Source of the DNA: a virus
Taxonomy: Duplodnaviria; Heunggongvirae; Uroviricota; Caudoviricetes
Virus record (IMG/VR): IMGVR_UViG_2547132488_000017
Coordinates: 1-6,329 of that record
DNA: 6,329 bases
Reading direction: 5' to 3' (one strand)
How positions within the stretch are numbered: position 1 is the stretch's first letter; each line of letters opens with the position of its first letter. The notes beneath the pieces are model-generated. The model saw only the letters and a program-made list of their open reading frames with translations, did not search any database and had not been told where the DNA came from. This document shows, one piece after another, positions 4,375 through 6,045 of the stretch. Made by a program: the position numbers and the translations under genes.

Positions 4375-4581
4375 ATGAAGTACTATGTTCACACTCTTGA
4401 AGATGCTCAGAACGATCACGAAGTTCATACAGAAACTTGTTTTCGACTTCCTGACGCAAACAATCGTAAGGAGCTGGGTGAGTTTAACTCATGCGAGCCA
4501 GCTGTGAGGGCTGCAAAAAATCTGGGCTACACAAGAGCAAATGGGTGTTACTGGTGCTGTAGAGATTGCCATACATCCTGA
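4375..4581 (+). CDS. Hypothetical small Cys/His-rich protein (68 aa)
   Basis: ATG 4375 with SD GGAGA at 7-nt spacing. 6 Cys and 4 His, including a C-terminal CYWCCRDCH cluster, suggesting metal binding. Followed by a terminator. No family recognised. Confidence 0.5.
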   Translation: MKYYVHTLEDAQNDHEVHTETCFRLPDANNRKELGEFNSCEPAVRAAKNLGYTRANGCYWCCRDCHTS

Positions 4582-4606
4582 CAGAAGATGTGAACTTAAT
4601 GGTAAA

Positions 4607-4628
4607 GGTCGCTTCGGCGGCCTTTTTT
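4607..4628 (+). terminator. Rho-independent terminator
   Basis: Stem GGTCGC (4607-4612) / GCGGCC (4617-4622) with one G-U pair, UUCG tetraloop (4613-4616), then TTTTTT (4623-4628). Confidence 0.75.
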
Positions 4629-4660
4629 ATTGCTCAAAAAACGAAAGAACGGAGGTACGT

Positions 4661-4942
4661 ATGTACGCACTGAAAAAAATTACGGTAACTGAAGATGGTC
4701 GCCAGGTTGAGGAAGTGCATGTCCTTGGGGATATGTATCGCCTGGAGTTCTATCCGCGTGACACTCATCTTGCTGCAAAAATTGAGTATTGCCGGGACGG
4801 GAATACTCCATGTATTCCGGTAGAAAAAGAGGATGAGGTTTACATTACCACACTGACCGGAGACACGGTGCGTTGTATCTGTCGCGGTGACAGTAAAGCC
4901 CGGGATGAAATAGCCAGATGTCGCACTCACACCAGTAAATAA
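4661..4942 (+). CDS. Hypothetical protein (93 aa)
   Basis: In-frame ATG at 4661 with strong SD GGAGG (4651-4655, 5-nt spacer). The longer listed ORF start at 4541 overlaps the preceding gene and the terminator, so the internal start is preferred. 5 Cys. No family recognised. Confidence 0.55.
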   Translation: MYALKKITVTEDGRQVEEVHVLGDMYRLEFYPRDTHLAAKIEYCRDGNTPCIPVEKEDEVYITTLTGDTVRCICRGDSKARDEIARCRTHTSK

Positions 4943-5205
4943 AAAGTAAAGTCCCGGCTGCGCCAATTATTTGATGCAGCTCCTCAGGCCTGTCCGCTGA
5001 TTGATGGCATCCGGCAGTGTCTGCAGAACTGATCGCCTGTAAGAGCAGAATATTTCGCTGAAAAATGAAGGATGCGCCAGCGTCCGGAAAGCATGAAATT
5101 CTGCTGTGTGTGTCAATTTGTCTTATACATTCTGAATCTTGCCGAATCAGGATGAACTTTGAACAACAGCCCGGGCGGCAAGGGGCATTTTTATCCGGAG
5201 GGGAT

Positions 5206-5430
5206 ATGAAGAGATTACTGGTAACCGTAAAGCCCTTTAACGGAACGATTCCATTCAGGGTTTTGCAGCGTGGACGTGTTCTGGTTAAGGATATCTTCAG
5301 TGGTAAATGCACGGAGTGTTATTCCCGGACATATGAAGTGGATGCCACGGATGAAGAAATTTCTGTTGAATGTGATCTGAACGCAAATATGGCGGGGATT
5401 GTAACGGCCACGTTGTTGCCTATTTCATGA
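5206..5430 (+). CDS. Hypothetical protein (74 aa)
   Basis: ATG 5206 preceded by GGAGGGG (5197-5203). In-frame upstream ATGs at 5065 and 5149 lack an SD. Contains a C-x-x-C pair (KCTEC). Preceded by a 263-bp non-coding gap. Confidence 0.45.
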   Translation: MKRLLVTVKPFNGTIPFRVLQRGRVLVKDIFSGKCTECYSRTYEVDATDEEISVECDLNANMAGIVTATLLPIS

Positions 5431-5470
5431 ATGACATAGAATGTCTCTGGGTACCCAAAAGGAGAACACT

Positions 5471-5686
5471 ATGTTTGTAGAAAATAACCTGAAGGCTGAT
5501 CCTGATAATCAGGGATGGGTTCTGGGTTGGGCTGTAGTACGTGACAAACCCTGGCATCTGGTCGGCATTTATGCAACGGAGGATGGCGCAAAGTCTAAAC
5601 GCTCTGAATTGAATGGGGAGTATGAAGTTCGTTATGGTTCCCATCGTTTAGGTAGTGATGATTTTATGTCTGTCGGACTTAGCTAA
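5471..5686 (+). CDS. Hypothetical protein (71 aa)
   Basis: ATG 5471 with SD AAGGAG (5459-5464) at 6-nt spacing; the listed start at 5441 has no SD. Followed by a strong terminator. Confidence 0.55.
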   Translation: MFVENNLKADPDNQGWVLGWAVVRDKPWHLVGIYATEDGAKSKRSELNGEYEVRYGSHRLGSDDFMSVGLS

Positions 5687-5707
5687 CTGGCTGTGATGCC
5701 TGTTTGT

Positions 5708-5732
5708 AGCCCCGCAAATGCGGGGCTTTTTT
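5708..5732 (+). terminator. Rho-independent terminator
   Basis: Stem AGCCCCGC (5708-5715) / GCGGGGCT (5720-5727), loop AAAT, T-run 5727-5732. Confidence 0.85.
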
Positions 5733-5748
5733 ATATCTGGAGATGATG

Positions 5749-6045
5749 ATGGAAAAAACAGAAAACAAACCGGTTGTAATTGGTGCCGCTGCTGTTCCGT
5801 TTAAGTTTGAACTGTCACAACTGGTGGAAGTATGCATCAGTGATGAATGGGGTGAGGTTAAAGCTCGCGCTCAGTATGCGGGTGGCGAAAATCAGTACTT
5901 ACTCCACTACAAAGCAGCTGATGGTCGCGCCACGACGGAGTGGTTTGGTGAGTCAATGCTGGAAGCAACAGAAGATGATCGTCATCCTGGTTGTCCGGTA
6001 TTTGCCGGTATGGAATTACCGAAAGGCGCGGTAGTTACTGAGTAA
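5749..6045 (+). CDS. Hypothetical acidic protein (98 aa from the third of three tandem ATGs)
   Basis: Three consecutive ATGs at 5743, 5746 and 5749. GGAG at 5739-5742 gives the best spacing (6 nt) for 5749. TAA stop at 6043-6045. No family recognised. Confidence 0.55.
   Translation: MEKTENKPVVIGAAAVPFKFELSQLVEVCISDEWGEVKARAQYAGGENQYLLHYKAADGRATTEWFGESMLEATEDDRHPGCPVFAGMELPKGAVVTE

Follow-up and report, generated by a model that had tools for sequence, protein, structure and literature searches.

The late region of a phiP27-like prophage

We analysed a stretch of 6,329 nucleotides of DNA (hereafter the window; positions 1 to 6,329 of the IMG/VR virus record IMGVR_UViG_2547132488_000017), which forms the late region of an Escherichia coli lambdoid prophage of the phiP27 type. 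Its gene order is Q, methyltransferase, tRNAs, holins, endolysin, a small lipoprotein gene, five small open reading frames (ORFs) named here O1 to O5, and cos (Table 1). The five ORFs, which are the subject of this work, lie on the plus strand between 4375 and 6045 and encode 68, 93, 74, 71 and 98 aa respectively. Each ATG is preceded, 5-9 nt upstream, by a GGAG or GGAGG Shine-Dalgarno (SD) motif. An annotation made earlier from the sequence alone (the initial annotation) had described five plus strand ORFs of these sizes, each with its own SD, and had located them between the lysis cassette and cos; both statements agree with the present analysis, in which the interval is bounded by the endolysin gene and cosN. 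Its residue counts (6 Cys and 4 His in O1, 5 Cys in O2) were also correct.

Modular arrangement of the interval

The distribution of the ORFs was surveyed by tblastn in 88 related loci, designated below by L numbers. The endolysin gene, the lipoprotein gene, approximately 180 bp, O5 and cos form a conserved core, and in 45 loci this core stood alone, with the lipoprotein gene and O5 as the only genes of the interval. O2 was present without O1, inserted between the endolysin and lipoprotein genes, in at least 13 loci, and O1 and O2 were present together in approximately 10. O4 accompanied O3 in 10 of the 12 O3-bearing loci, and the O3-O4 segment was always located between the lipoprotein gene and O5. 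All five ORFs were found in L001, L078 and L084, in the order O1-O2-(two small ORFs)-lipoprotein gene-O3-O4-O5. The gene order of the window recurs in L089-L092, and the order of O1 and O2 is reversed in L077. Among 5426 complete E. coli genomes, O1-O2 were found in 82, O3-O4 in 44 and O5 in 161.

Mapping of the window onto core loci located the boundaries of the inserted segments. Window positions 4101-4261 correspond to the 5' part of the lipoprotein gene, 4960-5118 to the 3' remnant of a second allele of this gene plus its downstream spacer, and homology to the O5 region resumes at 5733. O3-O4 is a discrete segment of approximately 0.6 kb that replaces 73 bp of the core arrangement. Judged from these comparisons, the interval is made up of three independently assorting modules (O1-terminator-O2, O3-O4-terminator and O5) and is not the single accessory island of the initial annotation. 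None of the three modules depends on the other two. The region between lysis genes and cos is a known hot spot for variable cargo, and the earlier suggestion that it acts as one here was borne out, since its content in related phages ranges from just the lipoprotein gene and O5 to the full set of five ORFs.

The survey also bears on whether the five genes constitute one co-acting system, such as a new multi-gene defence or anti-defence locus. In the window the five are neighbours on one strand, and L089-L092 have an identical arrangement. However, co-occurrence was loose: O5 was present without the other four in at least 45 loci, O2 without O1 in at least 13, and Shiga toxin (Stx) phages carry O3 without O4. 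Moreover, the gene order differs among relatives, with the lipoprotein gene interleaved, and the prevalence of the modules differs. We regard a single system as very unlikely.

Our preferred reading, which we consider probable, is that the interval is a mosaic of three independently exchangeable, non-essential passenger gene sets carried by the late operon of this lambdoid, phiP27-like prophage. These would have recombined in around the o-spanin-like lipoprotein gene, leaving a duplicated 3' fragment as a scar. As found, the interval is typical of lambdoid mosaicism, a known hot spot filled with conserved hypothetical genes, and in itself changes little. It does correct the picture of a five-gene orphan island to one of three shuffled modules around an o-spanin-like gene, and it tells which genes should be deleted together.

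Modular shuffling mediated by mobile regulatory cassettes (PeSLs) is described for T4-type phages (Arbiol et al. 2010, PMC2839356). As with the PeSLs described there, the module junctions of the window coincide with stem-loops, and the O3-O4 module ends exactly at its terminator. The differences are that the junction elements of the window lack promoters, being terminators only, and that temperate lambdoids are concerned here instead of T4-type phages.

Table 1. Features of the window and the evidence on which each one was assigned
Feature	Position	Strand	Evidence or properties
Q-type antiterminator	3-557	+	
DNA methyltransferase	1137-2183		
tRNA-Thr and tRNA-Gly	2352-2505		
Two holins	3067-3724	+	
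M15 endolysin (peptidase M15_4), final enzyme of the lysis cassette	3721-4104	+	Pfam PF13539, E 1.6e-12; phrog_465, E 2e-75
Small lipoprotein gene, 65 aa, lipobox LLVGC	4119-4316	+	phrog_7528, E 1e-33
O1 leader hairpin (predicted)	4338-4370	+	dG -12.1, z -2.98
O1, 68-aa soluble Cys/His protein	4375-4581	+	phrog_4298
Intrinsic terminator between O1 and O2	4604-4634	+	stem 4604-4625, loop TTCG, T-run; dG -15.4
O2, 93-aa soluble protein	4661-4942	+	phrog_33497
3' remnant of second lipoprotein-gene allele (...LFDAAPQACPLIDGIRQCLQN*)	4960-5032	+	blastn to gene 3' ends in L001, L006, L002
Conserved non-coding spacer after lipoprotein gene	5033-5118	+	39 sequence variants; conserved in every relative
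O3-O4 module, ends in terminator	5119-5732	+	boundaries compared to core loci L006, L016, L002
O3, 74-aa soluble protein	5206-5430	+	phrog_2571
O4, 71-aa soluble acidic protein	5471-5686	+	phrog_4280
Intrinsic terminator after O4	5708-5733	+	stem 5708-5727, 8 pairs (7 GC), TTTTTT; dG -17.1
O5, 98-aa acidic soluble protein, phiP27 L33 homologue	5749-6045	+	phrog_1935
Strong hairpin after O5, not a canonical terminator	6049-6089	+	approximately 17 pairs in the minimum free energy fold, dG -29, no U-tract
cosN-like site GGGCGGGAGCGT; also junction with exchangeable packaging module	6309-6320	+	end of cdtI record; divergence point of relatives

Conservation and families of the five ORFs

The ratio of non-synonymous to synonymous variation (pN/pS), computed against homologues in approximately 100 related loci, was 0.24, 0.17, 0.14, 0.00 and 0.20 for O1 to O5 respectively, and 0.08 for the endolysin gene. 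O1-O5 are under purifying selection and are real genes, not chance ORFs. All of them matched PHROG hidden Markov models (HMMs) end to end: O1 phrog_4298 (E 1.3e-23), O2 phrog_33497 (E 2.4e-52), O3 phrog_2571 (E 4.6e-28), O4 phrog_4280 (E 3.8e-41) and O5 phrog_1935 (E 1.4e-56). The five families are all annotated as 'unknown function'. The orphan status once given to these ORFs has to be abandoned, as all five match PHROG families (E 1e-23 to 1e-56) and have many homologues.

It is hardly conceivable that any of the ORFs is a spurious frame in non-coding DNA separating the lysis genes from cos. All are shorter than 100 aa and lack a Pfam or NCBIfam annotation, but pN/pS is far below 1 for each of them (O4 shows zero non-synonymous changes at a pS of 0.056), the PHROG matches are strong, homologues with identities down to 30-55% exist in other genera, and the AlphaFold2 (AF2) models of O1 and O2 are confident. 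Such a reading is refuted by the comparative data.

Functional assignment was attempted with several collections. Pfam and NCBIfam scans of O1-O5 gave nothing usable (the best match was DUF7457 at E 0.15 for O4, with noise for O1 and O2), and PADLOC-DB 2.0 yielded no defence HMM at E<=1 for O1-O5 or the lipoprotein gene. PDB searches with single sequences and family profiles were empty for O1, O3, O4 and O5. Anti-defence proteins (Acr, Ocr, Tad, Acb) gave no PDB sequence match to O1-O5, no dedicated anti-defence library having been searched. Neither homology to structural, packaging or lysis proteins (Pfam, PHROG, NCBIfam, PADLOC and PDB searches) nor a lack of conservation was observed, pN/pS being 0.00-0.24. 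The initial annotation had seen no motif assignable to a characterised family, and the Pfam, NCBIfam, PADLOC and PDB searches and the fold searches with O1 and O2 likewise returned no function. In Rfam, no family was found within the interval; sub-threshold GcvB and OmrA-B matches only overlap the O4 terminator.

The isoelectric points of O1-O5 range from 4.7 to 6.2 and none of the proteins contains a 19-residue window with a mean Kyte-Doolittle hydropathy of 1.3 or more; signal peptides and membrane segments were absent from all five. The products are predicted to be small cytoplasmic proteins that are soluble and mildly acidic. At 0.466, the GC content of the interval does not differ from that of the window (0.483); individual modules have 0.44-0.48.

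The lipoprotein gene and its 3' remnant

The lipoprotein gene, which together with O5 constitutes the conserved core of the interval, was found in 79 of the surveyed loci. In the compilation of two-component spanins by Kongari et al. (2018, PMC6139136), the o-spanin of phiP27 is listed at 20706-20861; the lipoprotein gene of the window is a homologue of this listed gene, encodes a lipobox and directly follows the endolysin gene. By contrast, the phiP27 i-spanin ORF (64 aa, TTG start; PMC6139136) has no homologue in the window. Among the related loci compared, full-length copies of the latter were present only in L002 (3508-3702), L013 and L041, with weak partial matches in L007 and L042. Most phiP27-like phages appear to encode an o-spanin-like lipoprotein without a recognisable i-spanin partner. 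O1-O5 were considered as the missing i-spanin and rejected, none of them having a hydrophobic or membrane segment.

The 263 bp that separate O2 from O3 are more than spacer, since they include the 3' remnant of the second lipoprotein-gene allele; the C-terminus encoded by this remnant matches that of the phiP27 o-spanin. In L001, the final 17 nt of a lipoprotein-gene allele are retained just upstream of O1. Since 3' ends of the lipoprotein gene flank the O1-O2 block, we interpret them as a recombination scar. The spacer that follows the remnant keeps, in nearly every variant, an inverted repeat (GCAGAAT.TTT...GAAATTCTG) enclosing a variable small hairpin, and the 39 variants contained no compensatory changes by which to judge its structure. 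A further terminator-like hairpin (4168-4193, 11 pairs, dG -16), followed by TTTTTTATT, lies within the signal-peptide codons (WALVEILVPFLLVG) of the lipoprotein ORF.

Transcription of the interval

Terminator-like sites were abundant in the window (18, compared to 6.8 ± 2.5 in shuffles). Of three terminators proposed for the interval in the initial annotation, those with stems at 4604-4625 and 5708-5727 are real, while the one placed after 6045 is a single hairpin without a U-tract. No terminator was found after O2, and only this hairpin after O5. All five ORFs are on the same strand as the Q, holin and endolysin genes. A consensus scan revealed no sigma-70 promoter in 4300-6045; the sole nearby promoter-like site (4270-4297, 9/12) is inside the lipoprotein gene and outside the conserved O1 module, which starts near 4300.

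The positions of O2 and O5 are informative in this respect. O2 starts approximately 35 nt after the terminator T-run in every arrangement, including the loci with O2 alone; compared to the O1-O2 loci, the latter have different terminator stems but the same T-run and O2 leader. O5 starts 16-22 nt after the T-run of the O4 terminator. As both starts are so close behind T-runs, there is no room for a promoter of their own, which points to production by read-through. In lambdoid phages, Q-modified RNA polymerase reads through terminators on the late transcript. In Stx phages, it is established that cargo is transcribed together with late genes (PMC8065619). Q-dependent read-through appears to be the likeliest means of expression, over expression from the repressed prophage. 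Consequently, at least O2 and O5, which need read-through, are more likely to be expressed late in the lytic cycle than to serve lysogenic conversion.

According to the preferred reading of a passenger mosaic, O1-O5 would lie on the transcript that starts at the late promoter, is antiterminated by Q and also covers the lysis and morphogenesis genes. Without Q, the internal intrinsic terminators would silence O1-O5 and everything downstream. The five genes would then act late in lytic growth, not as lysogenic-conversion genes, and a leader hairpin covering the ribosome-binding site of O1 would be a further gate on its translation. The shared strand, the promoter scan and the spacing of O2 and O5 behind T-runs are the grounds on which we expect expression in the late lytic phase and not a part in lysogenic conversion.

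Morons have been defined by their own promoter and terminator, a distinct GC content and expression from the repressed prophage (Cumby et al. 2012, PMC3594210). The initial annotation favoured genes of this class, and we compared the interval with the lambdoid morons HK97 gene 15, lambda bor and lom (PMC3594210). As in these, extra DNA stands between conserved late genes at a hot spot and intrinsic terminators bound the modules: O1-O2 and O3-O4 are discrete insertions or replacements that 45 related loci lack, and terminators follow O1 (covarying) and O4. Unlike them, the modules have no promoter of their own detected by the consensus scan and no distinctive GC content and, unlike lambda bor, O1-O5 are co-oriented with the late operon. 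On this comparison, O1-O5 are closer to passengers of the late operon, of which stx is an example, than to morons with autonomous expression.

Were O1-O5 classical morons or lysogenic-conversion genes, one or more of them would be expressed from their own promoters in the repressed prophage, with the terminators as boundaries, to the benefit of the lysogen (exclusion, defence or host modulation). Their presence/absence variation among otherwise similar phages and the terminators after O1 and O4 fit this, as do the 9/12 promoter-like site upstream of O1 and the antisense O1 homologues of Streptococcus Javan384, Staphylococcus phage 187 and Vibrio vB_VipaK, of which that of Javan384 is flanked by promoter-like and terminator-like sites. 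However, the 9/12 site belongs to the lipoprotein gene and not to the O1 module, no other was found in the interval, O2 and O5 have no room for a promoter, the ORFs are co-oriented with the late operon, their GC content is not distinctive and PADLOC gave zero matches. We consider this explanation doubtful, and the lysogenic-conversion proposal of the initial annotation is weakened by the same observations.

Several points weigh against the passenger mosaic with late expression. Conserved, covarying terminators inside an operon read by antitermination still need explaining. The internal terminators could instead set the O1:O2 stoichiometry or stabilise processed mRNA. The antisense, autonomous-looking O1 homologues of Gram-positive phages and a Vibrio inovirus would fit expression from a prophage. 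Moreover, the promoter scan was a crude consensus test and weak or non-sigma-70 promoters are possible upstream of O1 and O3, which have 58 nt and 173 nt of upstream room respectively.

The O1-terminator-O2 cassette

In the terminator between O1 and O2, all nine pairs were 100% paired in 7 distinct homologues and three of the pairs showed compensatory double changes; as many compensated pairs arose in 3 of 500 shuffles, and the covariation score was reached in none. The cassette was also found outside phiP27-like phages. With 51-78% protein identity it is present in a different lambdoid phage (L087), between Rz/Rz1 and terminase. It occurs in Proteus and Providencia prophages between Q and holin, which is where Stx phages carry stx, and, ahead of baseplate genes, in a myovirus prophage of the Aaphi23 type. 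The 135-kb contig that carries this last copy (L095) was considered as a large virulent myovirus and rejected, its baseplate protein being closest to those of temperate Aaphi23-like phages; L095 is probably a bacterial contig carrying a prophage. The argument that the cassette must be lytic-only was dropped for this reason.

O1 and O2 probably work together. Pairing is not obligate: each gene occurs without the other, O1 for instance in Devosia, Mixta, Jannaschia, Gram-positive phages and an inovirus, and this speaks against a toxin-antitoxin logic. We nonetheless weighed whether O1 and O2 form a pair of the toxin-antitoxin or regulator-effector type, whose internal terminator would keep O1 in excess of O2. 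The gene order and the covarying hairpin, which resembles a partial terminator, are kept in at least 6 divergent contexts, and O1 is predicted to be additionally controlled at translation. O2 was found without O1 in at least 13 loci, however, and O1 without O2 in many genomes; the order is reversed in L077, and no similarity to known toxin or antitoxin families was detected in Pfam, PHROG, NCBIfam or PADLOC. We judge such a pair to be quite unlikely.

A bolder proposal is that O1-terminator-O2 is an undescribed, horizontally mobile, doubly controlled two-gene phage accessory system, and that O1 founds a large un-named family of Cys/His (probably zinc) proteins of about 68 residues whose range includes Proteobacteria, Bacteroidota, Firmicutes phages and an inovirus. 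The double control would consist of a leader hairpin occluding the O1 ribosome-binding site and of the covarying internal terminator limiting O2. We advance this only tentatively, as a possibility that we rate as unlikely. If true, the cassette could be a counter-defence or host-takeover module deployed late in infection. Whatever its function, O1-O2 is singled out here as a cassette with unusually well-conserved RNA control elements.

The AF2 model of O2 (predicted local distance difference test, pLDDT, 89.5) shows a beta sheet of seven up-and-down strands (a meander), with a helix at the C-terminus. The family, with members in Escherichia, Salmonella, Edwardsiella, Hafnia, Xenorhabdus, Proteus and Providencia, has the invariant N-terminus MYALK. 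The initial annotation had called the first two ORFs Cys-rich: the Cys pattern of O1 is conserved, while the 5 Cys of O2 are not conserved across its family. A search of BFVD with the O2 model gave no E-value better than 0.15. A profile match of O2 to polyubiquitin (E 2e-15, 9-mer) was rejected as an artefact of identical tandem repeats. E was 0.03 for di-ubiquitin, and the polyubiquitin match extends across the junctions between ubiquitin units. A ubiquitin-like beta-grasp was rejected as well, the AF2 topology not being the mixed sheet around a central helix of that fold. More generally, full-sequence E-values are misleading on tandem-repeat targets, where a weak similarity such as that of O2 to the ubiquitin junction sums over the repeats.

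In a prophage of Providencia sp. PAZ2 (L098, 2981-3629), an O3-like gene (37% identity) and a 107-aa ORF are located between Q and the O1-O2 cassette. The N-terminus of this ORF (MKDGIYFVRFRSNSQDFGNG...) suggests a possible resemblance to type III secretion regulators of the GrlR family.

The O1 family and the O1 leader

Among 43 diverse members of the O1 family, H18, C22, C58 and C61 were invariant and C40 and C65 nearly so. The conserved Cys/His pattern suggests a structural metal site, and O1 probably binds zinc. The AF2 model has a pLDDT of 85, and a fold search with it returned no functional assignment. Two candidate identities were rejected. The HEVH of O1 is not the HExxH motif of zincins, since several family members have Tyr in place of the first His and a protein of this length is much too short. 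O1 was also compared to the N-terminal zinc domain of E. coli Ada (Ada_Zn_binding/N-Ada, PDB 1eyf and 1u8b), for which a significant sequence or structure match and a Cys4 site including the nucleophilic Cys were required, and these were not found in O1.

An exhaustive profile search at E<=1e-3 placed at least 1284 clusters of 50% identity in the O1 family, nearly all of them stand-alone proteins of 65-72 residues. Members were found in Bacteroidota and Alphaproteobacteria chromosomes and in those of Mixta and Jannaschia, and also in Streptococcus, Staphylococcus and Erysipelothrix phages and in a Vibrio inovirus. The Mixta and Jannaschia homologues adjoin what we take to be housekeeping genes, from names read from N-terminal sequences. 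In Javan384, phage 187 and vB_VipaK, the homologue is antisense to its neighbours; that of Javan384 is preceded by a promoter-like site (10/12, TG-extended) and followed by a terminator-like site. Among O1-O5, only O1 looks like an autonomous cargo gene elsewhere, to judge from its setting in these Streptococcus, Staphylococcus and Vibrio phages. The family thus described consists of very widespread small, predicted metal-binding proteins still without a Pfam or NCBIfam model, and a function for O1, once assigned, would annotate well over a thousand sequence clusters.

In the predicted fold of the O1 leader, ATTTCTCC (4338-4345) pairs with GGAGAAAT (4363-4370) and occludes the SD site, and the apex of the hairpin is a short palindrome, TGCGTACGCA (4347-4356). 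The same architecture was predicted in 7 of 7 enterobacterial or myovirus O1 homologues, with differing arm sequences (ATGTTTCCTATG/CATAGGAGATAT in L087 and ATCTCTT/AAGAGGT in Proteus). Across the seven homologues, z ranged from -0.85 to -4.28 and was at or below -2 in six. The stem was obtained by folding the sequences singly; RNAalifold on a MAFFT alignment recovered the apical palindrome only. The recurrence of this predicted structure suggests that translation of O1 is gated by the leader hairpin.

A porin gene (PF00267) is present on the minus strand, within prophage or accessory DNA, in L089 (3477-4574, between Q and the DNA methylase gene) and in L093 (2451-3560). In L093 it is approximately 1.4 kb upstream of an O1 homologue, downstream of which there are toxin-antitoxin pairs.

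O3, O4 and O5

In H-19B and in Stx1a, Stx2a and Stx2c phages, homologues of O3 (66% identity) immediately follow Rz. Homologues of O4 occur in mEp237 and in Pseudomonas phages, and the O4 protein is 100% identical in all close relatives. In mEp237, an O3-like gene (30% identity, E 4e-10) is directly upstream of an O4-like gene (64%). O3 and O4 may work together; as close O3-O4 relatives are 97-100% identical, mEp237 is the sole independent evidence for the pair.

O5 is the conserved last gene before cos. Its homologues were found in Salmonella, Enterobacter and Yersinia, and the core of the protein (residues 16-80) in P2-like ESSI2 and in Burkholderia phages. In the assembly collection, 211 index blocks contain the exact O5 protein. 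In some distant relatives only, O5 homologues are adjacent to termS. A role of O5 as a terminase-specific packaging factor was rejected, as an identical O5 protein is joined to both Nu1-type and DUF1441-type terminases.

The cos site and the remainder of the window

The linear GenBank record of phage cdtI terminates at window position 6308. L092, with a lambda-type Nu1/gpA terminase, and L090, with a DUF1441/GpA terminase, are collinear with the window up to cosN and diverge exactly there. GGGCGGGAGCGT and its flanks resemble lambda cos, the cosN of which is GGGCGGCGACCT.

Among known phages, the late region of phiP27 (L31-L34 and cos; AJ298298) shares the backbone of the window: Q, DNA methylase, tRNAs, two holins, M15 endolysin, the lipoprotein gene, L33 (the O5 homologue, 90% identity) and cos. 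It differs in carrying stx2e between the tRNAs and the holins, in the absence of all of O1-O4, and in an additional ORF, L34, between L33 and the annotated cos. In the window, the 560 bp that correspond to the stx2e position (2506-3066, from the tRNAs to the first holin) are without a convincing ORF and contain four strong plus strand terminator-like hairpins, at 2604, 2867, 2915 and 3026. A match to the prophage small RNA (sRNA) family STnc100 at 2701-2896 was sub-threshold (28.6 bits, compared to a gathering score of 47). A sub-threshold match to isrK, an Hfq-binding prophage sRNA, was located at 591-664, just 3' of Q (21.6 bits, E 0.2). The latter is probably due to chance, although the position is that expected for a short pR'-proximal transcript.

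The closest relatives of the window were a metagenome scaffold (L090) and an E. coli assembly (L091), with 99.95-99.97% identity over its full length. In L091 (11248-13643), the gene for the terminase large subunit is truncated (331 aa, compared to 700 aa) and is followed by an integrase gene and a second set of phage genes. The prophage of this E. coli assembly is probably interrupted by another element and defective.

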